Shown piece by piece: positions 25,953-40,269 of a stretch of 64,000 bases of DNA. A program made the position numbers and the translations under genes. The notes beneath the pieces were generated by a model, which saw only the letters and a list, made by a program, of their open reading frames with translations, had not been told where the DNA came from and did not search any database. Source of the DNA: Nitrospirota bacterium (GTDB lineage Bacteria; Nitrospirota; UBA9217); assembly GCA_963737155.1 (NCBI GenBank), contig CAVTRN010000002.1, positions 2,432,001 to 2,496,000 of the forward strand, written 5' to 3'. How positions within the stretch are numbered: the stretch's first letter is position 1; each line of letters begins with the position of its first letter.

Positions 25953-27101
25953 CTATAATTTCAGGTTTGCTGCAAGAGCATCCCATTCAAAATCGACGGC
26001 AATGGTTCGCACCTGTTCTTTCATTCGCATCCGAAACGCCATATCATCTACCATTTTAATAATTGCCTGAACTATACCATCTCGATCATTAGGGGGGACA
26101 GTTATGCCCATCCCTTTTCTTTCTATAAGATCGGCCCAAGCGTCCCCTTTTGTTGCAATTATTGGCAATCCCGCCCATACGTAGTCCAGCATGCGTGTTC
26201 TGAAGGAGAAGCGCATTTCCAGACTGTCCTTATGAAGACTTATGCCGGCGTCCGCTTCCAAAAGATAATCGGCCCGTTGTTCATACTGTGTCCATTTTCT
26301 ATTAATAAAAACAGAAGTTTCAAGCAGTCCCAGTCTTTCTGCTTCCGCGATAAAACGGTCTGTGACAGCCATTTTTTGAGAATCAGGACTTGGAGGCATG
26401 AGTCCTGGAAAGTAAACTTTAATGTCGTCGCGCCTCTGTTTGATCTTCGCAAGGGCTTGCAAGAGCAACAACGGGTCGAACCAGTCCCAGATGCCGCCGC
26501 CCCATACCAGCAAAAAATCCGTATCCTTTATTTTAGTACCTCGAAGTACTGAATGCTTCTTGACCGGTTTAACGGCAGACAAGCCAAACGGCAAAACCAC
26601 AATCGTATCCAGCTTTGAAGTATAGCCGAGGATAGTCAACTGCCCTATCAGAAAATCCTTCTGCTTTTCATTGGCAACGAGAAATCCCTTGCCGAATCTC
26701 AGAATTATACGTTGACGGATTTTCCACAGAAGCAGCATTGCCCACTTCCATATTTTCCCGGAAAGGGTTGACGGTCTACGTTCAAGAAATTCAAAAATAA
26801 CGGGGTCATACTGATCGAAAATTATCTGTTTGCGAAGCGCGAGGGAAAGAAGAATAGCGACGGGACTGCCCGGCTGAATTACACAATCCGATCGGTAGAT
26901 CCAAGACAACAGATTTACAAGCGATGTCCTTCCCGTAAAGGTTAAACCTTCACTGGAGAAACCTTTTTCGAAGTACCGTGATAAAATGACCGCCTGATGT
27001 CCTTTCCGCTTCAAGGCGTGCGCCAACTCCCAGTAGCGGATACCGGGGCCGGCCATCGTCGTACCGATAACATCGTTGCAAATAAATATGAGTCTTTGCA
27101 T
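25953..27101 (-). CDS. GT4-like glycosyltransferase
   Basis: MAGPGIRYWE, WGGGIWDWFDP, FRTRMLDYVWAGLP. Confidence 0.8.
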   Translation of the reverse strand: MQRLIFICNDVIGTTMAGPGIRYWELAHALKRKGHQAVILSRYFEKGFSSEGLTFTGRTSLVNLLSWIYRSDCVIQPGSPVAILLSLALRKQIIFDQYDPVIFEFLERRPSTLSGKIWKWAMLLLWKIRQRIILRFGKGFLVANEKQKDFLIGQLTILGYTSKLDTIVVLPFGLSAVKPVKKHSVLRGTKIKDTDFLLVWGGGIWDWFDPLLLLQALAKIKQRRDDIKVYFPGLMPPSPDSQKMAVTDRFIAEAERLGLLETSVFINRKWTQYEQRADYLLEADAGISLHKDSLEMRFSFRTRMLDYVWAGLPIIATKGDAWADLIERKGMGITVPPNDRDGIVQAIIKMVDDMAFRMRMKEQVRTIAVDFEWDALAANLKL

Positions 27102-27113
27102 CCTGAGAAGTGA

Positions 27114-28310
27114 TTACGACGTCTGGGGAATAGTGGTTTTTGACTTAACGGCTTTTCTTATTTCAATCCAATCGAAGACGTCCTCGAGACCCACTACAAA
27201 AACAATGAAAATGCCTATGGATGGCAAATAAATCCGATGTTCAAAAATAACATCAAGAATCGGGACAAAGCTTTGTGTCGGCGACAGAGTAATATAAAAC
27301 CAGGCAAAACCAAAGGGGATCAGCGTCCATCTCTTCTTCACATAGAGCCAAATCGAAACAGCCACAACGCCAATATGCGCTATAAAAGAAAGCAATGTCG
27401 GAAAAGCAAACAAGCTCGTCGCTAAGGGAAATTCATAATCTAAGTTTTGATTTATGGGGAGTATAAGAAGCCTCATATAAGTCCACATGACGTTGAGTGA
27501 TGTCAGCAAATAGGTTAAGGGGGTGATGCCCTTCTGTCCTGAGATGCCGAAGCCGGCACCGTTCATTTGCGTCGTCGACATGTTGTAAATCAACACGCCC
27601 CAAGACAACGCTACAAGCGCATGCCAGCCCAAGCGAGAAAGTACCGGCTTGAATTTGCTGTTCGAAAGAAACAGAAAATCATAGAGAATCAACATTGCAG
27701 GCAACGTTACGGCCCATTCTTTAGACCCCATTGCGAGCGCCGCTGTGACAAAACTACCTATAATGAAGTAGAATTTCCCTGTCTTTGCCCCCTTGATAAA
27801 AAACAAAAAAGTGGCAAGATAAAAAAACGCCGCGATAAGCTCCGTGCGGCTAATGATATACGTTACAGCCTCAGTCTGAACAGGATGGAGTGCAAATAAA
27901 AGAGCGCCGACAAGAGCCATTCGACGTGACCTGTAGCTGTATTGATCGCTCAGAGCGGGCAATTCTAGAGTCCAGAGAATAAGTAAATATACAAAAATAC
28001 TGTTCACTATGTGGCAACTAATATTGAATATGTGCCATCCGATGACATTCTGACCGCTCAAAGCATAATTAAACAGCAGCGAAAGATTTATTATCGGCCT
28101 GGTTCCGTTAAAAGCGGCAATGAAATTGTCCCAGGTAAGTTGCTTAATGTTGATATTATCCACGATAGTGGGGTTATCATCAAAATGGAAGTCAGCCTTG
28201 AATGTGTTGGAATAAGCAATAAGGGTCATTACGGCAATAATACCAAATGCGATGAGATTGAAATGCTTTCCAAGCAGTACCTTGCTGATTTTATCTCTTA
28301 AAGCTTGCAT
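27114..28310 (-). CDS. TMTC-like GT-C membrane glycosyltransferase without TPR domain
   Basis: FHFDD loop, RP, HIFN...H, LFALHPVQTEAV.YI..R.E, SKE, EHRIYLPS; multiple TM segments. Confidence 0.72.
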   Translation of the reverse strand: MQALRDKISKVLLGKHFNLIAFGIIAVMTLIAYSNTFKADFHFDDNPTIVDNINIKQLTWDNFIAAFNGTRPIINLSLLFNYALSGQNVIGWHIFNISCHIVNSIFVYLLILWTLELPALSDQYSYRSRRMALVGALLFALHPVQTEAVTYIISRTELIAAFFYLATFLFFIKGAKTGKFYFIIGSFVTAALAMGSKEWAVTLPAMLILYDFLFLSNSKFKPVLSRLGWHALVALSWGVLIYNMSTTQMNGAGFGISGQKGITPLTYLLTSLNVMWTYMRLLILPINQNLDYEFPLATSLFAFPTLLSFIAHIGVVAVSIWLYVKKRWTLIPFGFAWFYITLSPTQSFVPILDVIFEHRIYLPSIGIFIVFVVGLEDVFDWIEIRKAVKSKTTIPQTS

Positions 28311-28396
28311 GATTGCTTTTGCTCCTTTGTAAATTTCAATACAACTTGTACTTTAACATGGTTTTGAAGGAAAGTAAACATTATTTTCCAGCACAA

Positions 28397-28777
28397 TCAA
28401 CCCTTTACGGTATTATTTGGAGCACTGTTGCCCAGGGATTCCTGTATCTGTTGGCGCAGTAGCGCCACCTCCTGCGCCAGTTGCTTGTTCTGTTCATACA
28501 GTCCGGAAATAACAACGGAAAAGTGAAGCGTAATGAGTAAGAGGAAAAGAAACGCAACCAGAAAAAGCAACGATGGCGGATAGAAGATACCGAGCAGATG
28601 TGAAACATATCCCAGAAGATCCCGCGACGATGAGAATATTAGCAGTACGCCCCCTGAAAGGAGCCACAAAAGCGAGTATTTTTCCTTAAGACTGCCCCTT
28701 CGGATAAGTTCCGCAACGATAAACAGCAACCCCCCACTCCCGACAATAGCTAGGATTTTTAATAAGTCCATCGGCAC
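28397..28777 (-). CDS. DUF2304 membrane protein (GacJ/Rv3632-like)
   Basis: LKEKYSLLW, LGIFYPP and C-terminal LAQEVALL; overlaps the GT2 stop. Confidence 0.85.
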   Translation of the reverse strand: MPMDLLKILAIVGSGGLLFIVAELIRRGSLKEKYSLLWLLSGGVLLIFSSSRDLLGYVSHLLGIFYPPSLLFLVAFLFLLLITLHFSVVISGLYEQNKQLAQEVALLRQQIQESLGNSAPNNTVKG

Positions 28778-29472
28778 TACCTCACTTTTTTCATGAGATC
28801 AATAAAAATTGCAATGAGTACCTTTGTCATGTAATATGCCGACCTTAGCGGAGTAATGGAGGATTTACCACCGGTCCGTTCCTGCATTGCAACGGGCACT
28901 TCAATCATACGCTTTTTTGCCTTATGGAGCAAGACAAGGGACTCCACCTCGGGATAGTCATCAGGGTAGTTCCGCGCAAAAAATTCTATGACACTCCGGT
29001 TCGCGGCCCGGAAACCGGAAGTACTGTCTGTAACAGACGTGCCCATGACCCGCGAAAGCACGAACGAAAAAATCCATATTCCAACCGATCTAAAAACAGG
29101 AGTTTTATATTCACTGGGCACTAGAAACCGGGATCCGATCACCATATCTGCCTCTTCAGCTTCAAGAGGACGCAGGAGTTTGATGATTTCCTTCCCCACA
29201 TGCTGGCCATCACCATCGAATTGCACAGCGATATCATAATTATTACGCAGCGCGTACAAATATCCTGATTGAACCGCTCCGCCGATGCCCAGATTAAACG
29301 GTAAATCCAGGACACTAATACCAAGTTCCCTCGCAATACGGGCCGTGTCATCTTTCGAACCGTCATTCACCACCAGCACGTGCGCCGAGGGGACGAACTC
29401 CCGCAGGTCACGGATTACGCCGGGAAGGCTCTTTTCTTCATTATATGCTGGAACAATAACAAGCACTTTCAT
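28777..29472 (-). CDS. DPM1-like GT2 (polyprenyl-phosphate sugar synthase, GacI/PpgS-like)
   Basis: VPAYNEE, NDGSKD, NLGIGGA, QFDGDGQH, DSTSGFRA. Confidence 0.87.
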   Translation of the reverse strand: MKVLVIVPAYNEEKSLPGVIRDLREFVPSAHVLVVNDGSKDDTARIARELGISVLDLPFNLGIGGAVQSGYLYALRNNYDIAVQFDGDGQHVGKEIIKLLRPLEAEEADMVIGSRFLVPSEYKTPVFRSVGIWIFSFVLSRVMGTSVTDSTSGFRAANRSVIEFFARNYPDDYPEVESLVLLHKAKKRMIEVPVAMQERTGGKSSITPLRSAYYMTKVLIAIFIDLMKKVR

Positions 29473-29600
29473 AAGATGAAAATAGCACGCACGCGATATT
29501 AATTTTTTAACAATTTATCAACTCGGCAAAAAATGATTTTTCTCATGGGCCTCTGTTCAGGAAAAGCGGAACCCCTTGACCGGCCTGACGCATCGGCTCG

Positions 29601-30626
29601 TTAATCTTTCAAGGCGACCTCACGGACCGATATACGGAATGTACAAAGCAACCGGTAAAAATCGATGCGGTTGAGCCGCCTCAACCGTGCTATCGCACGA
29701 CGTTGGGTAACGATATGTGGAAGCGCTGTGAACGCAGACCACCAAGCTTTCAGAAGGATTGCCATTGCCCTGAGAATGGAATGCTGCTCGGAAAACTTGC
29801 CGCTTGCGCCTTTGCCGGTGAAGGCACCGAGAAGATGAACAAGTAGCCGCACAAATGTAAGGACCGGGCTCAACAGAATCAATTCCAGAGGAAAATATTT
29901 GAGCAGAACCCATATTCTGTTCCGTTCGACCAGGAACGCTTTGAATGGTGAGTAAGCCGTCGATGAAGCCGAGTATTTATGATAAACCCTAGCCGAGGGG
30001 ACATATCGGCAACCCCATCCCGCAAGCCTGGCACGGAGTCCGATATCGACATCATCAGCATAAGCAAAAAATTCCTCGTCAAAAAGACCGATTTCGGTCA
30101 ACATTTCCCTACGGTAAAGGCCGGCGCAGCCGCTCGGGAAAAAGGCTTCACCAGGCTGGTCATACTGTCCCTGATCCTTTTCAAGCCTTCCCCTGCCTCT
30201 CCCCAAACCGTCCGGATAGAGGAGCAAGCCAACATTATCGAAGATCCCGGGGTTATCGTAGGAGAGTATTTTGCTTGCCCACATCCCGGTCGAGTGCGGA
30301 CTCGACTCTGCTTCGGACAGAAGATTCTCCAGCCAGGCGGGATCAGTTTTCGTGTCATTATTTAACAGGGCGATGTACTCACCCCGTGCAACCTTTATCC
30401 CGGCGTTATTGCCTCCCGCAAAACCCAGATTCTCAGGAAGCGAGACAAGTCTTACTGCGGGGTATTGTTCCCTAACATAGTCCGTAGATCCGTCTTGCGA
30501 CCCGTTATCGACCAGAATGATTTCAATTGCTCTCGCTGTTTGTGCCGCGAGTGAGTTCAGGCACTCCTCCAGCAGGCTTTTGCCATTCCAGTTAACGATA
30601 ATAACCGACACTATCGGTTGGACCAA
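29601..30626 (-). CDS. GT2 glycosyltransferase (rhamnosyltransferase-like)
   Basis: VIIVNWNG, DNGSQD, NLGFAGGNN, LLNNDT, FFAYADDVD; TTG start after GAAGGAG is inferred. Confidence 0.88.
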   Translation of the reverse strand: MVQPIVSVIIVNWNGKSLLEECLNSLAAQTARAIEIILVDNGSQDGSTDYVREQYPAVRLVSLPENLGFAGGNNAGIKVARGEYIALLNNDTKTDPAWLENLLSEAESSPHSTGMWASKILSYDNPGIFDNVGLLLYPDGLGRGRGRLEKDQGQYDQPGEAFFPSGCAGLYRREMLTEIGLFDEEFFAYADDVDIGLRARLAGWGCRYVPSARVYHKYSASSTAYSPFKAFLVERNRIWVLLKYFPLELILLSPVLTFVRLLVHLLGAFTGKGASGKFSEQHSILRAMAILLKAWWSAFTALPHIVTQRRAIARLRRLNRIDFYRLLCTFRISVREVALKD

Positions 30627-30828
30627 AAAGATACTCCTTCGGCTGCTCCTGCGGAATGACACGGCGAGAGCTATTTCACGCCTTTAATAATAATATATCC
30701 ATTATTAACAGTCAATGTATAGGGAATAATTCATCATTACAAGGTCGCGATTTGTGTGTATAGAAAATTTTGGGTAAAAAAGCTAGATTTTCGTTCCGGT
30801 ATCAAGAAGGATGAAAGTCTGTTCCAGG

Positions 30829-32724
30829 CTAAATATCCAGTTCTGCGAACTCTGCCCGTTCCTTGATAAATACAAACCGTGCCTTGGGGTCCTTACCCAT
30901 GAGCCGATCGAAGACATCGTCTGTCGCCTTATGGTCCACGACCTGGACTTTCATGAGAGAGCGGGTTTTCGGGTTCATCGTGGTTTCCTTGAGTGTCTCA
31001 GGATTCATTTCTCCCAGACCTTTAAACCGTCCAACCTCGAACTTCTTGCCGTTAAGTTTCGCGAGAATTTTTTCTTTTTCCATCTCATCCATGGCATATA
31101 AAACCTCTTTTCCAACCTCAATCTTGTAGAGCGGCGGCATGGCAAGATAAATGTGGCCGTGAGCAATTAATTCGGGTATGTAACGATAAATGAACGTCAG
31201 CAGCAGAACACTGATATGTGCGCCATCAACATCAGCATCGGTCATAAGGATTATGCGGCTGTACCGGAGTCTGGTAATGTCTAAATGGTCGCCTACGCCG
31301 CAGCCGAGTGTGGCAAGAAGGTTCTTGATTTCGTTGTTCGTCTGGATTTTCTCGAGTGATGCCACCTGCTCCACGTTCAGGATCTTGCCGCGAAGAGAAA
31401 GCACCGCCTGAGTCTTACGGTCGCGAGCCATCTTGGCCGAACCGCCTGCCGAGTCGCCTTCCACGATGAAAAGTTCCGTTTCCTCAACTTTATTAGAAGA
31501 GCAGTCCGCAAGTTTTCCTGGAAGATTGAGCTTCAGGGACGACAGTTTGCGGATCACGTTCTCCTTGGCTGCACGGGACGCCAGCCTTGCTTCGGCGGCC
31601 AAGAGGACCCGTTTCACTACCGCATCGGCCATCGTCGGGTTCGCAAGCAGGTACGCTTCACAGGCGTTCTTAACCGACCCTTCAATGGGCGATGAAATCT
31701 CGGGATTGTTCAGCTTTTCCTTTGTCTGCCCTTGGAACTGTGGATTTTTTATGAGTACGCTTACGATGCCGTACAGCCCCTCGTACACGTCTTCGGGCGC
31801 TATGGACTTGATGTTTTTGGGGATCAGGCCTTTACGTTCCGCGTAAGCGCGCACAGCTTTCGTGAGCCCTGACCTTACCGCAAGCTCGTGGGTCCCCCCG
31901 TCAGACGTGTTGATAGAATTCGCATAAGAGTGGATTTCCATATCCGTTGCAAGGGTCCAGTGAACTGCGCACTCGATTTTAAAATCATCTTCCTTTTCAA
32001 AATAGAATGGATCGGGATTCACGACCGTGGTACCCGATACGATGCGCTTGATATAATCCTGTATGCCGTTATCATATTTGAAAGTAACCGGCTTCTCGCC
32101 TTCGCGCAGGTTCTCGATCGTGATTCTGAGTCCCTTGTTCAGAAACGCCTTGCTCTCTGATACGGCGAGAATATCTTTATAATTGAAGCCTGTTTTCGAA
32201 AATATTTCAGGGTCCGGCCGAAAATAAATCTGGGTTCCGTGTGCCCGCGTCGGTTTGCCTTTTTTGAGACTGCCCTTTGTTTTACCCCGGCTGAACTCCT
32301 GGACCCACTCAAACCCGTCGCGCCATACCGTTGCGACAAAAACCTCGGACAGCGCGTTCACGACCGACGCACCTACGCCGTGCAGGCCGCCTGAGGATTT
32401 ATACACCGCATGGTCAAACTTGCCGCCGGCATGAAGCGTGCACAGAATCGTCTCGATCGCTGGCCGTTTCGTTTTCGGATGAGTATCCACAGGAATGCCG
32501 CGGCCGTTATCCACGACCGTCACCCCGCCATCCTTCTCGATCGTGAGTTTGATCTCCGTGCAATAGCCGTTCAAGGCCTCATCAACGGAGTTATCGAGTA
32601 CTTCCCACACAAGGTGGTGAAGGCCGCGTACGTCCGTGGAACCGATATACATGGCTGGACGTTTACGGACTGGCTCCAGACCTTCGAGAACGGTGATGTC
32701 TTTTGCAGTATAAGTAGCTGCCAA
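30829..32724 (-). CDS. Type IIA DNA topoisomerase subunit B (GyrB/ParE family)
   Basis: LEGLEPVRKRPAMYIG, EVLDNSVDE, DNGRGIP, GGLHGVG, EGDSAGG, LRGKILN, DADVDG, RFKGLGEM. Confidence 0.93.
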   Translation of the reverse strand: MAATYTAKDITVLEGLEPVRKRPAMYIGSTDVRGLHHLVWEVLDNSVDEALNGYCTEIKLTIEKDGGVTVVDNGRGIPVDTHPKTKRPAIETILCTLHAGGKFDHAVYKSSGGLHGVGASVVNALSEVFVATVWRDGFEWVQEFSRGKTKGSLKKGKPTRAHGTQIYFRPDPEIFSKTGFNYKDILAVSESKAFLNKGLRITIENLREGEKPVTFKYDNGIQDYIKRIVSGTTVVNPDPFYFEKEDDFKIECAVHWTLATDMEIHSYANSINTSDGGTHELAVRSGLTKAVRAYAERKGLIPKNIKSIAPEDVYEGLYGIVSVLIKNPQFQGQTKEKLNNPEISSPIEGSVKNACEAYLLANPTMADAVVKRVLLAAEARLASRAAKENVIRKLSSLKLNLPGKLADCSSNKVEETELFIVEGDSAGGSAKMARDRKTQAVLSLRGKILNVEQVASLEKIQTNNEIKNLLATLGCGVGDHLDITRLRYSRIILMTDADVDGAHISVLLLTFIYRYIPELIAHGHIYLAMPPLYKIEVGKEVLYAMDEMEKEKILAKLNGKKFEVGRFKGLGEMNPETLKETTMNPKTRSLMKVQVVDHKATDDVFDRLMGKDPKARFVFIKERAEFAELDI

Positions 32725-33240: not shown

Positions 33241-33604
33241 AAATTCACCCCCTCCCTTTCCCGTCGTTAATAACTGCAACACGTTTACAGCAATATATAT
33301 GAATCGGATGAAAAACGCTTTGCAGCTTTGAGAACTTTAGATACATGACCCGATGTGGACTTGTTACCTGTAATGCTCTACCAAATTCTTCATTGAAACC
33401 TTCAAATTATATTACTTTTTTTTCAAAAAGCAAGTAAATTTAACGTTATATTATGAAATTGCGATTTATAAGCAAAAAATCAGAAATTGTAGTTATTCAA
33501 ACCTCGTTATTCGGTTTTGTGAAAATCCCTGCGGGCCCAACCTACGGAGATCTTCTGGTCATGAAGCACTTATTTCATGCGGACTTGGTAGAAAGAACCT
33601 TGAC

Positions 33605-34759
33605 CTATACGATTTCTTCCACCATCTTCCTGAAATGCCCGCAGTTTTCTACCAGGTCAGGACCGTGTTTAAACAGACCGCCGCCGATCAGGAAGATCAG
33701 GTCCTGTCCGTATGTTTCGAGCATCTCGGACACGCGGTCTAGGCTCATGCCGCCGCCGGGAGCGGGGAAAATGGATTTCAGGCTGCCCATGGGAAGAGCG
33801 GTTCCTCGCACGATATCGCTGCACTCCTTGCGGCTAAATGAGAATCGACCACCAAAATTTGGGAAAATCGTTGCGTCCGCACCCGCCAAGCGCGCCAACT
33901 GGCCGAAAATAACACCGTGGGAAATGCCGTTCCGGCTCGTGACAAAGCAACCCTGCAAAGCGGGGTGAGTAAATATCGGCAGCGCTATGCCGTCATCTTC
34001 GGCCAATTCTTTCATCAGATCCATACCTATTAATCCGGGGGCTGCCATAAGGCCGCCCGCTCCGGCACCCTTGGCAAATCTGGCCCTTTTCACTACTTCG
34101 CAGTGAGGAGCCGTGATATTCGCTATATAAATGGCATGGCTACCCGTTTCTCTGCCTGCCCGTTTGACAGCGGCGGCGCAGAGCTCGACTCGTTCCTCGA
34201 AGGGCGAACAGCTTTGATTGCTCAGACCGTGATCATCCTTGACGATGTCCATCCCCCCAAGGACGAAGCGATAGGCAAGGTCGGCAAGCTCCTGTGACGA
34301 AAGGCCCATAGGTTTGAGCGCTGTTGAGAGAATAGGCCTTCTTGGGATGTCCAGCAGCTGCCGGATTCCCTGACGGCCGAAGCGCGGCCCCTTGAATCCT
34401 CTGAGTAGCGCCTCTGGGAGGTCGAGATGTTCCACCCTAATGCCGGGCTTTATACTGCTATTCCCGAATACAACGTTCAGGAACTGGGTCAATTCGCCGG
34501 CAACGATCTCCACAGCATAGCTGATTATTGCGATAAAGCTTTCTTGATCAAACCGCTCAATGTGTTCAACACGGCCAAACACGTGGTCGCGAATGATGCC
34601 TTCCGGAACCTCATCTGCGGGAAATTCCACGGTCTGCTCGATGCAGATGGCCTCAGCCGCGGCACGAGATACTTTCTCGCTTCCGAAAAGACGGTAGGTG
34701 ACGAAGAATCGCTCACCGGAGAAACAGGATTGGGGAGTGCAGGTTTTTTGAATGATCAT
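33605..34759 (-). CDS. RuBisCO-like protein (form IV, KDDH type)
   Basis: ICIEQTVE, FGNSS, GPRFG, TALKPMG, GGMDIVKDDH, PAPGGG, LIGGG. Confidence 0.92.
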   Translation of the reverse strand: MIIQKTCTPQSCFSGERFFVTYRLFGSEKVSRAAAEAICIEQTVEFPADEVPEGIIRDHVFGRVEHIERFDQESFIAIISYAVEIVAGELTQFLNVVFGNSSIKPGIRVEHLDLPEALLRGFKGPRFGRQGIRQLLDIPRRPILSTALKPMGLSSQELADLAYRFVLGGMDIVKDDHGLSNQSCSPFEERVELCAAAVKRAGRETGSHAIYIANITAPHCEVVKRARFAKGAGAGGLMAAPGLIGMDLMKELAEDDGIALPIFTHPALQGCFVTSRNGISHGVIFGQLARLAGADATIFPNFGGRFSFSRKECSDIVRGTALPMGSLKSIFPAPGGGMSLDRVSEMLETYGQDLIFLIGGGLFKHGPDLVENCGHFRKMVEEIV

Positions 34760-34815
34760 CGAACAACTTGGTTAGACAAAATATACAATGTCTTTCATTG
34801 GGTAATGTTTTCTGT

Positions 34816-35001
34816 TTAAGTTCCAGAGGGGACATCATTCCATAGCCCGGCCACTTCCCTAGGATGTTCGGGTTTTTCAAGGGCGTAGACCTTCCTGATC
34901 GCCGCCCGCACTAGCTTTGAAATGGGAACTGTTATTCCCCTGCTTAAACGTTTCAGTACTTGAAATACATGGTCTTCTATATAGAGTTGTGTCCCTTTCA
35001 T
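34816..35001 (-). pseudogene. Ribbon-helix-helix (CopG/VapB-like) antitoxin remnant, no toxin partner
   Basis: MKGTQLYIED...ISKLVRAAI...AGLW pattern; upstream TTGACA and GTATG repeats. Confidence 0.6.
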
Positions 35002-35063
35002 GCAACACCCCTGCGCTCCTTGACTTTATGGATAACATACATCATACGCATTGTCAATGACCT

Positions 35064-37055
35064 TTACAAAGCTTCAGCCTTTGCCACGCTGTGGACCGCT
35101 GTTATGTAAGCTTTAGTAAGCTCCTCTTCGGTAATTTCGAATTTCTGTCCGACCATTGTTTCCACTTCACCGACAAGCGACAACGCGTCCATGCGGTGTT
35201 CCTTTAATAGATACTGTTTGCTCGCACCATGGCTGAAGGTGTCCCGCAGACCAATGCGGACGAGCTTCTTCGCAATGCCCGCTTCAGCCATCTTTTCCGC
35301 TATGATGGTCCCCAGACCACCAACGATGGTATGGTTTTCCATGGTGATAACCCCGAAACGGGATCGGCCGATCGCATCGATCACCGACGCATCCGTAAAT
35401 GGTTTCAAAGTCGAAATATGCATATGCTGAATCGAGAGGCCCTGATTTTTCAGGAGTGGTGTCGCCCTCATAGCTTCCTCCGTCATTATCCCCGAGGTTA
35501 GTATCACAACGTCGTCCCCTTCGGAAAGAACACGTGCTTCTCCCAGCTTCATCGGGCAATCGAAGAGCCGCGGGATTTCGCCCCGAAGCATCCGGACATA
35601 CACAGGGCCATGAATCCCCTTGGTGAGGTCAAGAACAGTCTCCACTTCGGTTGCATCGCCGCACTCCAGTACAGTCATATTCGGTAACGAACGCATGACA
35701 GCAATGTCCTCTATTGCCTGGTGGGTGGCCCCTCCGGGCGTGGTAATGCCTGGGAGAAAACCGATCATCCGGACCGGCAAATTGGAATAGGCAATGGACA
35801 TGGCAATCTGGTCATAGGCGCGGCGATAAATGAAGACTGCAAAAGTGTGTACAAAAGGTATAAACCCCTCGCGTGCAAGGCCGGCGGCGAAACTCAGCAT
35901 ATTCTGCTCAGCTATGCCCATGGACAGGAAGCGATCGGGATATGTCTCGCGAAACAGATCGATTTCAGTTGAACTCGTGAGGTCAGCTGAAAGAACGAGC
36001 ACTTCTGGCTTATCACCAGCCCATTTGACGAGATTTTTCGCATGAACACGAGTCACGATTATGGAGTCCGTTGCTGGCCGTTCCGGATATTTTTCTTTTT
36101 TCTCCATCGATGACACAACCGTGCCAGTAAGTTTCACATAGGCGTTAATATAGTTCTTCTTTTCGTTATCACTCGTGAAACGGACATAGTGCATCTTTGG
36201 CGCCCGAGTCTTCAGTATGTCGATTCCCCTTGCAGCATCTGTGTCAGCAAGCACCACAACCGGACGGCCGTCAGGTGTGAGTGCCCCGGTTTCGGCAATA
36301 CGCTTTATATCATGACCATTTATCCGGAATACCCTCGCACCAAAGGATTCAATCCTCTTGTCGAGCGGCTCGATATCCATTACATTGCACATTTTCCCAT
36401 CGCATTGGAACCCGTTGATATCCACATATATAATCATGTTGTCCAACATGTAATAGGACATGGCCTGGAGCGCCTCCCAGGTCTGGCCTATTTGAAACTC
36501 GCCGTCTGACATGAAGACGAACACTCTGCCCCGTTCGCCCTTTCTCTTTCTGGCCATGGCTATACCTGCTGCCTGACTGATTCCCTGGCCCAGGGAGCCG
36601 GTCATGGTTTCCATGCCCGGAGAATGCTCGGCACCGATCATCTCGACCGAACTTCCGTCCTTATTGAACTGCGAAAGCCCCTCCTCCGCCATGCGCCCCG
36701 TTTCTATTAATGTCGCGTAAAGAACAAGTGCATACTGGGCTGGAGAAAGAAAGAAGCGATCAAAATTTCCACCCGATCCATTGAAAGAGGCTCCAGTGAA
36801 GTAACCCGGATTATCGGGACCGGGCACGCCTGAAAAAGGTTGCGGAACGAGGGGGGTTTTCATTTTGCCGAGGTTCATAATCCGAACATAGAGGGTTGCC
36901 AGTATCTCAGCGGACGAACATGCTTGGGAAAGATACCCCCCGTTGTTCCTGATTGTATGTTCAAGCACACGCCTCCTGATACCGGCTGCAACACGTTGCA
37001 CTTCATCCTGCCACATCGTGGAATCATCTTTACCATGCTTTGATTTCATAACCAA
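35064..37055 (-). CDS. Fused two-domain transketolase-like ThDP enzyme with atypical active site
   Basis: TGSLGQG, SDGE...N ThDP motif, SADLTSST, GIAEQNM, RAYDQI, GGATHQ; N-terminal His motifs replaced. Confidence 0.88.
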   Translation of the reverse strand: MVMKSKHGKDDSTMWQDEVQRVAAGIRRRVLEHTIRNNGGYLSQACSSAEILATLYVRIMNLGKMKTPLVPQPFSGVPGPDNPGYFTGASFNGSGGNFDRFFLSPAQYALVLYATLIETGRMAEEGLSQFNKDGSSVEMIGAEHSPGMETMTGSLGQGISQAAGIAMARKRKGERGRVFVFMSDGEFQIGQTWEALQAMSYYMLDNMIIYVDINGFQCDGKMCNVMDIEPLDKRIESFGARVFRINGHDIKRIAETGALTPDGRPVVVLADTDAARGIDILKTRAPKMHYVRFTSDNEKKNYINAYVKLTGTVVSSMEKKEKYPERPATDSIIVTRVHAKNLVKWAGDKPEVLVLSADLTSSTEIDLFRETYPDRFLSMGIAEQNMLSFAAGLAREGFIPFVHTFAVFIYRRAYDQIAMSIAYSNLPVRMIGFLPGITTPGGATHQAIEDIAVMRSLPNMTVLECGDATEVETVLDLTKGIHGPVYVRMLRGEIPRLFDCPMKLGEARVLSEGDDVVILTSGIMTEEAMRATPLLKNQGLSIQHMHISTLKPFTDASVIDAIGRSRFGVITMENHTIVGGLGTIIAEKMAEAGIAKKLVRIGLRDTFSHGASKQYLLKEHRMDALSLVGEVETMVGQKFEITEEELTKAYITAVHSVAKAEAL

Positions 37056-37239
37056 CCCATCTTCTCCTCAGTTGTGTATATATATAATGAGTGACCAGTA
37101 TGGTTTCCTCACCGGCCTCCGACTCAAGCTATTATTCTGGCTTGACCGAATTGACTGCGAAACATAAAAAAGAAGGCCTCGCATGAACAATCGTTCGCTT
37201 ATCCTTTCATTACAGTAAATCGTTTGTTTAATGGCGTTG

Positions 37240-37268
37240 ATTATCACGCAAGGACTGTTAGGAGTCAA
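37240..37268 (-). promoter_or_regulatory. Putative sigma70 promoter for the transketolase-like/RLP genes
   Basis: TTGACT-17bp-GATAAT on the minus strand. Confidence 0.5.
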
Positions 37269-37295
37269 GACGAAATTAACTTACAGAAGCGGTGA

Positions 37296-37335
37296 TTGAC
37301 ATCCTCCCCGGATGTCCTAAATGACGAGTATTCTC
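37296..37335 (-). mobile_element. Degenerate IS200/IS605 right-end
   Basis: Minus strand reads GAGAATACTCGTCATTTAGGACATCCGGGGAGGATGTCAA, similar to the GGAATCCCC..TTTAG..GGGGAGGATGTCAA end. Confidence 0.6.
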
Positions 37336-37626
37336 GAATCAGGCTCTGCAGATTCTGTTAGCAGACGCAGCAGAGATATTTCCACATCCCAGGTTTATGG
37401 ACCGATGTAGCATATATAAAATAGTCTATACCGGACTGCTCGCAGCTTGAACGTTTGGTGTCAACTATTGACATCCAACCTTGGAATTCATGCTACAAAC
37501 GTGAATATTATATCGTTTAACAGGGCTAATTTCTGCAGGAAAGGATCGTTGGATAGATACTTAATTCCTAAGTCTGCGTGAAAGGCTTCCATTGGAATAA
37601 GTGGAGATATTACTGGATTCAGGAGA

Positions 37627-37675
37627 GGTCAAATCGTCATTCACTAAAATGATGATCACAATCGAAAATTTGACC
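37627..37675. repeat. Short inverted-repeat element (MITE/REP-like)
   Basis: GGTCAAAT...ATTTGACC terminal inverted repeat. Confidence 0.45.
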
Positions 37676-37795
37676 CCTACCTGCTGCACCCGGGAGGACG
37701 GGGCAATTTCACGCCTCTACGCTGATAAAAAAATACGGGAAGGTGTGAGGATATAAATTTTACTTCCCCTCTTTTCCCGTTTGATTCTTCACACG

Positions 37796-39355
37796 CTACG
37801 CTGCTTTTTTTAGATTTGCTTCCATTACTCCTAGCGTGTTCTCATCATAGTCCTCTTGCCGAGTCTCATCTGGTAAACGCTTTATACCCATTGCATCAAA
37901 AATCATAGTCAGAATTACCGAGATGATAAGATTCACTGCTAAAGCATATACCCCCGCATACGCTGGGATTGTCATGCTACCCAAATGGAGCGTATAGATT
38001 GCCGACTTAAAACCGGATGTAGCCACCATTGCTGTTCCGGTGATCATGCCCGCAAACCAGCCTACAAGCAATGCACGATGGTGCAGCCAGCGGGTAAAAA
38101 GACCGAAGATGATCGCTGGAAAGGTCTCCACGATCCAGATGCCTCCCAGCAGCTGAAGCACGATAGCGTACTGGAGCGGCAGGAAAATTACAAAGGCAAG
38201 CGCTCCGAGCTTCACGACCAGCGACACGAGTTTTGCCACCTTGGCCTCCTGTTTTTGCGTTATGTCCGGACGAATGTATTCACGATAGATGTTCCGCGTA
38301 AACAGGTTGGCCGCTGCAATGGACATGATAGCCGCGGGCACGAGTGCCCCGATCACGATAGCAGCAAAACAGAACCCCGTGAACCACGGCGGAAACATTT
38401 TAAGAAACAGTTGGGGAACCGCCTCGTTTGGCGTCGCGGGATGGATGCCAGCTGCAAGAGCCATCAGTCCAAGAAGAGCAATCAACCCGAGAAGAAATGT
38501 ATATGCAGGCAATAGAGCCGCATTACGCTTGATGACGTTGCCGCTAGACGAACTGAGTATGCCCGTAATGGTATGCGGATATACAAAAGCGGCCAGCGCT
38601 GAACCGAAAGCAAGCGTCGCATATGCGCTATAACCGGCGGCTGGGAGGATAAGATGACCTGCGGTCGCTTTTGCTGCAAGCGCCTTATCAGCCAGCCTGA
38701 ATACTTCTGCATACCCACCCAGCGCCGCTGGTATCATCGTTACTGCAGCGATGACCATAAGATAGATCATAGAATCTTTGACCACCGCTATGAGCGCTGG
38801 CGCACGCAGACCACTCGTGTATGTATATAATGCAAGTATCACAAATGCGATGATAAGCGGGAGATCATTCATCCATCCGGCGCCCATTACACCCAGTGCT
38901 TTAATTACGACCTGAATACCTACCAGTTGCAACGCTATGTACGGCATAGTCGCCAGTATTCCGGTAAATGTAACAGCCAGCGCCAAACCGGGCGAACCGT
39001 AGCGTCCGCGCACAAAATCAGCAGGCGTCACAAAGCCATGCTGTTTGGCCACAGCCCACAGGCGCGGCATGGTGAGATAAACAATGGGATAGACTATGAT
39101 TGTATACGGCAGAGCAAAGAAACCCATGGCGCCTAGACCGAAGACAAGCGCAGGGACTGCAATTACCGTATACGCCGTGTAGAAATCGCCCCCGACAATG
39201 AACCATGTTACAAGAGTCCCAAACCGCCGACCTGCAAGTCCCCACTCTTCAATGCGGTTGAGATCCCCTCGCCTCCATCTCGCAGCAACAAAGCCAAGTA
39301 TAGTTACCAACAGGAAGAAAAATACAAATACACCTAATTCAGTCCAGTTAACCAT
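37796..39355 (-). CDS. Sodium:solute symporter, MctP-type monocarboxylate permease
   Basis: EWGLAGRRFG, GGD.YTAYT, TMPYIALQL, SGLRAPA, ALVPAAIMSIAAANL; paired with DUF3311. Confidence 0.9.
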   Translation of the reverse strand: MVNWTELGVFVFFFLLVTILGFVAARWRRGDLNRIEEWGLAGRRFGTLVTWFIVGGDFYTAYTVIAVPALVFGLGAMGFFALPYTIIVYPIVYLTMPRLWAVAKQHGFVTPADFVRGRYGSPGLALAVTFTGILATMPYIALQLVGIQVVIKALGVMGAGWMNDLPLIIAFVILALYTYTSGLRAPALIAVVKDSMIYLMVIAAVTMIPAALGGYAEVFRLADKALAAKATAGHLILPAAGYSAYATLAFGSALAAFVYPHTITGILSSSSGNVIKRNAALLPAYTFLLGLIALLGLMALAAGIHPATPNEAVPQLFLKMFPPWFTGFCFAAIVIGALVPAAIMSIAAANLFTRNIYREYIRPDITQKQEAKVAKLVSLVVKLGALAFVIFLPLQYAIVLQLLGGIWIVETFPAIIFGLFTRWLHHRALLVGWFAGMITGTAMVATSGFKSAIYTLHLGSMTIPAYAGVYALAVNLIISVILTMIFDAMGIKRLPDETRQEDYDENTLGVMEANLKKAA

Positions 39356-39359
39356 GGCA

Positions 39360-39638
39360 TTACCTCCTTCGCGTTGCGAGGTAGACGATACCGGTCAGAA
39401 GTGCGCTCACAATCACCCACACAAACTGGTACCAGTAAAAGAATGGAAAACCAAACAATACCGGATCAGTCTTTGCGTACAGAGGAGGCCACAAAAGCCC
39501 GAGAAAAGGCACAAATAAAAGCCAATTCCACGCCTTCCTAGAAGCCTTTTTTTGTGGGTTTTCTTTTGTTAAATGAGCTATCGGCCGAATGTGAGATGCT
39601 TCCGGCACGATATTAAGATGCCTAAAGAACCGTACCAT
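39360..39638 (-). CDS. DUF3311 small membrane protein (MctS-like partner)
   Basis: PVLFGFPFFYWYQFVW motif; ATG at 39638 after AAGGAGG. Confidence 0.85.
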   Translation of the reverse strand: MVRFFRHLNIVPEASHIRPIAHLTKENPQKKASRKAWNWLLFVPFLGLLWPPLYAKTDPVLFGFPFFYWYQFVWVIVSALLTGIVYLATRRR

Positions 39639-40269
39639 GTTTACCTCCTTCATTCCGCAAGGCAAACACCGCAACTCTTCAAAGGCCGAATATTTCAAAT
39701 AAGGCTAAATTGGTTCGATTTTACGAATTACGCTTTCCGCTCTCACGGCATTGCCTTGTGAAAATTTATCTTCCTCTAATTATTATTATAGCTCATAAAC
39801 AGGATTTATATTGTCTTGTTTAGTCTCCGCTAATAAATAATAAAAATCTCACCTGGTAAATCGATCTTTCTAAAATCCCCCCATACGTAACTTCTCCCTG
39901 CCAGATCAAGCAGACACACATCAGATCTTTTAAACAATCTAGACAAAGCATATTATTATTATCATTATTTCTATCAGTACCGTTTTTTTATAGTAGAAGC
40001 ACCGACGCGCATTCCCTCAGAAGGGAGGCGCAAATCTATCAGTCCATCATTGGAACTGCCATTCATCCTTCGAAAGACTCAGAGTAAATGAGAAGCCTAT
40101 ACAATTTTGTTATTTTATCGATGAAAATAGGCGATATGGCCAATAGAAACTGGCAGTTTTTTAGCAGAATTAGGGTTGGAAAATCGTCATTAACCAACAA
40201 ATGCTCTTCTTTTCTAACCAGAATAACGTGATAGCACAAATAGGAAAACAAGCGAAAGATTGTCCAACT

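Follow-up and report, generated by a model that had tools for sequence, protein, structure and literature searches.

A RuBisCO-like protein and a transketolase-like enzyme as a conserved bacterial gene pair, probably recycling the sugar of S-adenosylmethionine by-products

5'-Methylthioadenosine (MTA), as well as 5'-deoxyadenosine, is an inhibitory by-product that S-adenosylmethionine (SAM) chemistry cannot avoid, and the disposal of both in strict anaerobes is only partly known. Here we describe a pair of genes, one for a form IV RuBisCO-like protein (RLP) and one for a fused transketolase (TK)-like enzyme with a thiamine diphosphate (ThDP) site, in a 64,000-nucleotide stretch of the genome of a Nitrospirota bacterium (GenBank assembly GCA_963737155.1, contig CAVTRN010000002.1, positions 2,432,001 to 2,496,000), which as a whole is referred to as the window. 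The oxygen-independent exits described in passages of PMC5893883 and PMC4958253 are the Ald2 aldolase and an RLP-cupin pair. The locus in the window points to a third exit, with a ThDP enzyme in the place of the cupin.

Among the closest described systems is the MTA-isoprenoid shunt. Described in Rhodospirillum rubrum and Rhodopseudomonas palustris, it consists of MtnP, MtnA, Rru_A1998, Rru_A2000 and an O-acetylhomoserine sulfhydrylase. According to passages of PMC4958253, Rru_A1998 is an RLP isomerase of the DeepYkr kind and Rru_A2000 is a cupin that functions as a methylthioxylulose-5-phosphate sulfurylase. The two genes are adjacent in R. palustris, and the product is a 3:1 mixture of the xylulose and ribulose forms (passages of PMC5893883). 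The system in the window's organism resembles this shunt in that MtnP and MtnA are also encoded, the KDDH-bearing RLP is closest to the solved protein 3qfw, and relatives within the same family keep the cupin operon; it would also be oxygen-independent if our proposal is true. It differs in that the window's genome has no Rru_A2000-type cupin and a ThDP enzyme occupies the neighbouring position, and the expected carbon products would be glyceraldehyde-3-phosphate and a two-carbon unit rather than 1-deoxyxylulose-5-phosphate. The dihydroxyacetone phosphate (DHAP) shunt, which uses MtnP or MtnK, MtnA and a class II aldolase (Ald2/DrdA), has the same first two steps. It likewise splits a pentulose phosphate into a triose phosphate and a two-carbon fragment (passages of PMC5893883), and the Bacillota clusters described below, with an ATP-binding cassette (ABC) transporter and MtnK-MtnA, have a similar layout. 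Unlike the DHAP shunt, the system considered here lacks a class II aldolase in the window's genome, and its proposed cleavage would follow isomerisation by the RLP, use ThDP and yield glyceraldehyde-3-phosphate rather than DHAP.

Two known ThDP enzymes offer a comparison for the second gene. Canonical TK (EC 2.2.1.1; Carboxydothermus hydrogenoformans 6yaj/6yak and human TKT) shares with the TK-like protein its three domains, the ThDP motif, the cofactor-activating Glu and the phosphate-binding Ser and Arg, but the equivalents of His26, His66, His100, His461 and Asp469 (presumed E. coli TK numbers, used throughout) are replaced in the TK-like protein, which falls below the NCBIfam TK cut-offs. 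1-Deoxyxylulose-5-phosphate synthase (DXS) is a ThDP enzyme for a 1-deoxy-pentulose-5-phosphate and glyceraldehyde-3-phosphate, as is proposed here. Unlike DXS, the TK-like protein misses the curated cut-off (187 bits on model TIGR00204 against 466) and lacks two N-terminal histidines, and the proposed direction is cleavage rather than synthesis. Neither a TK-like/RLP pair nor a TK-like link to methylthioribulose metabolism was found in open full-text papers, a search in which subscription journals lay mostly outside. Term look-ups in PMC6302742, PMC10663253, PMC7895386, PMC6389311, PMC6079011, PMC10986504, PMC13474568, PMC12632272 and PMC4958253, among them a 2026 review touching on MTA salvage, likewise gave no TK-like link to an RLP or to methylthioribulose and no description of the pair. 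The pair probably represents recycling of the sugar of SAM by-products by a route so far undescribed.

It is reasonably likely, in our judgement, that the products of the two genes act one after the other in an oxygen-independent salvage of MTA, and probably of 5'-deoxyadenosine too. In this pathway MtnP (in the window's genome) or MtnK (in some others) together with MtnA would produce 5-methylthioribulose-1-phosphate, which the RLP would convert to 1-methylthio-xylulose/ribulose-5-phosphate; with the deoxy analogue the RLP would yield 1-deoxyxylulose-5-phosphate. The TK-like ThDP enzyme, standing at the position of the R. rubrum cupin methylsulfurylase, is predicted to cleave the RLP product at C2-C3: it would attack the C2 carbonyl, break the bond and release glyceraldehyde-3-phosphate, with the C1-C2 fragment held on ThDP and afterwards released or transferred. 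Conceivable fates of this fragment are protonation to 2-(methylthio)acetaldehyde, transfer to an acceptor, or loss of methanethiol to leave an acetyl unit. The gene pair and its conservation, the clusters with mtnK and mtnA, the missing aldolase and cupin in the window's genome and the remodelled substrate pocket are observations; the substrates of both enzymes, the order of the steps and the fate of the two-carbon fragment are inferred from them. The proposal offers a candidate function for a conserved 'transketolase' paralogue and for an RLP clade named RuBisCO in databases, and it contains a testable new reaction in the TK superfamily. For annotation, it means that these 'RuBisCO large chain' and 'transketolase' calls are no sign of a Calvin cycle.

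Conservation of the RLP and TK-like gene pair

A scan with one genome per species identified 80 related TK loci. The gene maps of these loci are simple open reading frame (ORF) calls, in which antisense ORFs were sometimes chosen, and six loci were re-read by tblastn. Of the 80 loci, 44 have a co-oriented RLP gene downstream of the TK-like gene, at a distance of no more than 400 nt in 38. Linked loci were detected in Nitrospirota, Spirochaetota, Bacillota, Acidobacteriota, Chloroflexota and Elusimicrobiota, and further in Planctomycetota, Myxococcota, Calditrichota, Synergistota and the NC10 group; among the carriers of the pair are Bacillota of the gut, for example Hungatella hathewayi, whose cultured strain WAL-18680 carries a split version at locus L056. 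By the ORF maps, most loci from outside Nitrospirota encode the TK in two separate genes (about 305 and 335 aa). The RLP-linked TK family, including the window protein, is here called type A, and its sister family type B. Whole-genome searches of 48 genomes with a type A TK recovered an RLP in 47, and in the one RLP-free genome the TK locus is cut off by a contig end.

The association was also evaluated in 301 genomes of the window's phylum that were picked independently of either gene. RLPs were counted at an identity of at least 56%, and the 38-39% identical TK hits of two genomes (G098 and G117) were dropped, since they were read as canonical TKs. A type A TK was present in 50 genomes and an RLP in 53, with both in 48, TK only in 2, RLP only in 5 and neither in 246; the genomes are kin, and these co-occurrence counts carry no statistical test. 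One of the two TK-only genomes is 71% complete, and the other is 93% complete in about 550 contigs. Distant RLPs (36-52% identity) occur in 36 further genomes of the sample, none of which has a type A TK. The RLP and the type A TK are a conserved unit across many bacterial phyla.

Two side observations concern RLPs of the same phylum. In one genome of the window's family (G245:C15:1032370-1035521) adjacent TK-like and RLP genes both contain in-frame stop codons (6 TGA and 2 TAG in the former, 1 TGA and 1 TAG in the latter), which may mean that the two genes are decaying together or that the assembly is at fault. In another family, f9 (L097, L098, L100, L103, L107 and L109), the gene after an RLP of the distant clade (36-52% identity) encodes a B12-binding radical SAM protein about 730 aa long, and an HD-domain protein and a peroxiredoxin are often close by. 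These f9 RLP loci contain neither a TK-like gene nor a cupin, and the RLP and the B12-binding radical SAM protein may form another RLP partnership.

The RLP, its partners and the MTA salvage genes

The initial annotation, made from the letters of the window, had described co-oriented genes for an RLP with a KDDH motif and for a TK-like protein with a ThDP motif. This description holds, as both genes lie on the minus strand (Table 1) and the KDDH motif occupies RLP residues 174-177. No NCBIfam model, whether for a RuBisCO form, MtnW or OiaX, reaches its cut-off with the RLP. The best solved relative of the RLP is 3qfw (E 9.3e-71, 242 bits), which we take to be R. palustris RLP1, compared with 4nas (169 bits), the MtnW 2oek (147 bits), the R. 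palustris RLP2 2qyg (134 bits) and the Chlorobaculum tepidum protein 1ykw (131 bits). The aligned 3qfw chain reads KDDH and the MtnW chain 2oek reads KDDE; KDDH, replacing the KDDE metal-site motif of RuBisCO and MtnW, is presumably a mark of the DeepYkr clade. Among the matches listed, 3 of 120 homologues carry the JGI name 'S-methyl-5-thioribulose 1-phosphate isomerase'. Based on 3qfw, the KDDH motif and its cupin-linked relatives, the RLP is predicted to be of the R. rubrum DeepYkr kind and to function as a 5-methylthioribulose-1-phosphate 1,3-isomerase, possibly acting on 5-deoxyribulose-1-phosphate as well.

The cupin-linked relatives belong to the window's own family. In G117 (one contig, 98% complete) and G269, the RLP is 56-57% identical to that of the window and no type A TK is present. 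The RLP is followed there by an alpha/beta hydrolase, a 146-aa cupin, a Cys/Met pyridoxal phosphate (PLP) enzyme closest to O-acetylhomoserine sulfhydrylases, and a CoA-binding protein. The best solved match of the cupin is 3jzv, 'uncharacterized protein Rru_A2000' (E 1.6e-41). A cupin at least 50% identical to that of G117 occurs in just 2 of the 48 type A TK genomes. The initial annotation had remarked that no cupin lies in the window, and the remark extends to the whole genome (G000; 4.84 Mb in two contigs, 100% complete): a search with the G117 cupin detected no Rru_A2000-type cupin at E <= 1e-5, and the three small cupins of the genome do not match 3jzv. A tree built from 53 RLPs by maximum likelihood (quick search, midpoint root) has the cupin-linked RLPs nested within the TK-linked clade, the enclosing group of 11 rows having an SH-aLRT (Shimodaira-Hasegawa-like approximate likelihood ratio test) value of 95. 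The simplest reading is that of one RLP function with two interchangeable downstream enzymes.

Gene clusters tie the pair to the upstream salvage steps. MtnK, MtnA, the N- and C-terminal TK halves and the RLP are encoded in one cluster at L038, L050, L058, L061, L062, L064 and L065, and by gene map also at L059, giving eight Bacillota or Spirochaetota loci in all. In these clusters MtnK reaches 411 bits (cut-off 275) and MtnA 465 bits (cut-off 271). Ribose-type ABC-transporter genes lie alongside these clusters, some of which add a DeoR regulator and an RbsD/FucU mutarotase, and DhaK is present in L058, L059 and L062. In the window's genome MtnA (439 bits) and MtnP (327 bits) are over their cut-offs and encoded elsewhere on the chromosome; no MtnK was found in this complete genome. 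Nor was a PF00596 class II aldolase, the same search being positive in 11 of 14 control genomes, so the genome has neither MtnB nor Ald2. Since its only PF00016 gene is the RLP of the pair, no consumer of the MtnA product other than this RLP can be recognised in the organism. A side observation at L038 is a zinc alcohol dehydrogenase and a class II aldolase-like gene a few genes downstream.

Results of the genome-wide searches are in line with the clusters. MtnA is over cut-off in 46 of the 48 type A TK genomes; MtnP is present in 37 at E <= 1e-30 (34 over cut-off), MtnK in 9, and one or the other in 42. The co-occurrence of such TKs with RLPs and mtn genes, which the initial annotation had proposed as a check, is borne out. 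Synteny, co-occurrence, Mtn clusters, gene absences and the partner swap together lead us to consider that the TK-like enzyme appears to replace the cupin, and the same observations support the cupin-independent route for SAM by-products that had been put forward at the outset. The products proposed then, glyceraldehyde-3-phosphate and a methylthioacetyl unit for transfer to an acceptor, are predictions.

The transporter-bearing clusters also bear on a different explanation, in which the pair would mainly serve carbon catabolism of imported 5-deoxypentoses (5-deoxyribose or methylthioribose) and not sulfur salvage. The RLP would then form 1-deoxyxylulose-5-phosphate and the TK-like enzyme would split it into glyceraldehyde-3-phosphate and an acetaldehyde equivalent, in parallel to the DHAP shunt that supports growth in E. 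coli. The ribose-type transporter of the Bacillota and Spirochaetota clusters, the DeoR, RbsD/FucU and DhaK genes of some of them, and B12-radical SAM genes upstream in L001, L019 and L031 would suit such a role, as would the growth on 5'-deoxynucleosides that the DHAP shunt supports according to PMC10986504. However, the window's genome and its Nitrospirota relatives have no transporter or kinase at the pair and encode MtnP rather than MtnK, which fits internal recycling, and the partner swap involves a sulfur-releasing cupin. We consider a mainly catabolic role of this kind rather improbable.

A pathway unrelated to SAM by-products, such as one for a branched or rare pentose like apiose or hamamelose, or co-regulation of the two genes without sequential action, appears very improbable. 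RLPs and transketolases are each said to occur in apiose pathways, reportedly in work of Carter et al. from 2018. Apiose RLPs are mentioned in passages of PMC6302742 and PMC6389311, and type B TK-like enzymes occur in clusters with phosphotransferase system (PTS) and dehydrogenase genes. Nevertheless, the model of the apiose decarboxylase OiaX (NF042437) aligns with no more than residues 77-227 of the RLP, at 77 bits where the cut-off is 700, the conserved neighbours of the pair are MtnK and MtnA, MtnA is encoded in nearly all type A TK genomes, and the swap is with an Rru_A2000-type cupin. The branched-sugar role that the initial annotation had named as its alternative is disfavoured by the OiaX score and by these neighbours.

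Active-site residues of the TK-like enzyme and its sister family

The TK-like protein carries all three TK domains in one chain (Table 1), in agreement with its initial description as fused, and PF13292 matches weakly. The best NCBIfam TK model, NF004559, gives it 371 bits against a cut-off of 488. The other ThDP paralogues of the window's genome are two canonical TKs (902 and 885 bits), a split TK and a genuine DXS (875 bits); the TK-like gene is therefore an extra paralogue. The N- and C-terminal halves of 60-odd family members were compared with these two canonical TKs, the split TK and the DXS. Counts for N-terminal residues refer to 42 type A and 18 type B rows, with nine rows that start in the C-terminal half left out.

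The cofactor site is kept, with the motif S-D184-G...N214 in which Asp184 and Asn214 are invariant in all 42 type A rows. His289 of the window protein, aligned with TK His261, is kept, as are the cofactor-activating Glu in the motif IAE(381)QNM and the residues aligned with the phosphate-binding TK Ser385 and Arg520. The substrate pocket is remodelled. All 42 type A rows have Tyr41 (GGY41) in place of TK His26 and Ile140 in place of His100, and four residues after Ile140 stands a new, invariant His144. Gln107 (SPAQ107) takes the place of His66 in 35 of 42 rows, and in FLPGITT-PGGATHQ the window protein has Leu for His461 and Gly for Asp469. Alignment to human transketolase gives the same residue equivalences. 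The canonical TKs of the window's genome keep the canonical substrate residues, and its DXS keeps both N-terminal histidines that are missing from the TK-like protein. The alterations that the initial annotation had read in the GHxG and SxGH motifs were confirmed against the genome's own TKs, split TK and DXS. The third alteration stands in part: Ile140 lies at the position of the GHP histidine by sequence alignment, but a register shift is possible.

Judged by these residues and the curated scores, the TK-like protein is neither a transketolase nor a DXS, though it belongs to the transketolase superfamily. The kept phosphate-site Ser and Arg fit a donor with a 5-phosphate, and the replacement of His by Tyr, Gln and Ile around the C1 hydroxyl fits a substituent other than a hydroxyl at C1.

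Type B enzymes are 49-60% identical to type A over the best aligned segment and were found in gut Clostridia and Erysipelotrichaceae. Their loci (L025-L030, L039, L067-L071 and L073-L079) have split genes, with a GGCY motif and His66 kept. In most of them a class II aldolase or epimerase-like gene follows, at the position that the RLP holds in type A, and many also contain genes for a zinc alcohol dehydrogenase, a SorC/DeoR-type regulator and galactitol-type PTS IIA, IIC and HPr components. At L077 a cluster of ABC transporter, MtnK, MtnA and FucU genes lies divergently beside a TK resembling type B, with identities of 43% to the N-terminal half and 58% to the C-terminal half.

Several observations weigh against the salvage reading or narrow it. 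In type B, with no RLP linked, His26 is changed to Tyr in 17 of 18 rows and His100 to Ile in 18 of 18, and the Leu and Gly changes are present too. The pocket changes are thus not specific to the RLP partnership, and because most of them recur in an RLP-free family the histidine argument is weaker than the initial annotation had stated: the residues that it expected to be lost for a donor without a C1 hydroxyl are replaced, but largely in common with type B. Moreover, 7 of the 42 type A rows retain His66, and 6 of these have an RLP in the locus. No RLP was found within 3 kb downstream at L077, where the type B-like TK stands beside the MtnK-MtnA-ABC transporter genes. The RLP tree holds no characterised RLP, so the tie to R. 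rubrum depends on 3qfw, the KDDH motif and the cupin-linked relatives. In 6 of the 48 type A TK genomes neither MtnP nor MtnK was detected, and 38 of the 48 encode some class II aldolase. In five genomes (G006, G009, G022, G035 and G036) the aldolase adjoins MtnP-MtnA, and the exits from methylthioribulose-1-phosphate are therefore not limited to the RLP-TK route there. A class II aldolase-like gene also lies directly after the RLP in L055, L061, L062 and L064, which are Oscillospiraceae-type clusters, and an aldolase branch and an RLP-TK branch may share one operon. Given the aldolases in TK genomes, these four loci and L077, the pair may work beside a DHAP-shunt-like branch and not only replace it. 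Finally, no O-acetylhomoserine sulfhydrylase over the family cut-off was found in the window's genome, whose 403-aa Cys/Met PLP enzyme lies below it.

The fate of the sulfur separates a more specific version of the mechanism. The TK-like protein might be a new ThDP-dependent 1-methylthioxylulose-5-phosphate lyase that works like a phosphoketolase: after C2-C3 cleavage of 1-methylthioxylulose-5-phosphate the enamine would expel the C1 methanethiolate and acetyl-ThDP would form, giving acetate, acetyl phosphate or acetyl-CoA together with glyceraldehyde-3-phosphate and methanethiol for methionine synthesis. Such a lyase would be a functional replacement of the cupin, since it is the cupin that sets the methylthio group free (passages of PMC5893883 and PMC4958253). 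The replacement of the acid-base histidines around the C1 hydroxyl and the new invariant His144 are also consistent with it. Weak support comes from sulfur genes near the pair, with a cysteine synthase-like gene beside it in L008, L011 and L012, an O-acetylhomoserine sulfhydrylase gene near it in L008 and L014, and a sulfhydrylase-like gene in the cupin version in G117. The four loci with such neighbours of the pair, L008, L011, L012 and L014, belong to Spirochaetota and Anaerolineae. On the other side, no acetate kinase or phosphotransacetylase is among the annotated recurrent neighbour clusters, the same pocket occurs in type B, whose context suggests an ordinary sugar or polyol, and the window's genome lacks a sulfhydrylase over the family cut-off. 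We hold the lyase activity to be doubtful. If it were true, MTA would be converted to glyceraldehyde-3-phosphate, an acetyl unit and methanethiol with no need for oxygen, glutathione or a nitrogenase-like reductase, 5'-deoxyadenosine would reach central metabolites via 1-deoxyxylulose-5-phosphate by the same pair, and a third widespread anaerobic exit from methylthioribulose-1-phosphate would exist in at least ten phyla.

Layout of the locus and neighbouring genes

The positions of the pair and of its neighbours in the window are given in Table 1.

Table 1 Features of the window at and around the RLP and TK-like genes (positions within the window)
Feature	Positions	Strand	Place relative to pair	Remarks
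Glycosyltransferase gene run and DUF2304 gene	25953-30662		downstream	
gyrB	30829-32724		downstream	
Form IV RLP	33605-34759	minus		384 aa; PF00016, E 3.9e-31
Small ribbon-helix-helix ORF	34816-35001	minus		61 aa; PF12651, E 3.9e-5
Fused TK-like ThDP enzyme	35064-37049	minus		661 aa; PF00456, PF02779, PF02780
MctP-type monocarboxylate symporter	37796-39355		upstream	757 bits (NCBIfam)

The MctP-like symporter was considered as a part of the unit and rejected, as it is missing from related loci. A 112-aa ORF also lies upstream of the pair (flank 37796-39698). None of the window neighbours (gyrB, the glycosyltransferases, the DUF2304 gene, the symporter and the 112-aa ORF) recurs beside the pair in other genomes. 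A promoter and terminator scan of 33300-37900 returned sites no more numerous than in shuffled sequence.

The TK-like ORF as listed covers 35064-37055, with a TTG start at 37055. The start is probably the ATG at 37049, because the identical database protein P0003 has 661 aa. The spacer between the TK-like and RLP genes is 305 bp long and contains the ribbon-helix-helix ORF, which has no NCBIfam match and is probably outside the pathway. In other phyla the TK and RLP genes are 0-100 nt apart, without a ribbon-helix-helix ORF. In Nitrospirota relatives (L003, L004, L005 and L034) the distance between the two genes is 0.8-8 kb, with variable small genes in between, and the spacer seems to collect insertions in the window's Nitrospirota lineage.

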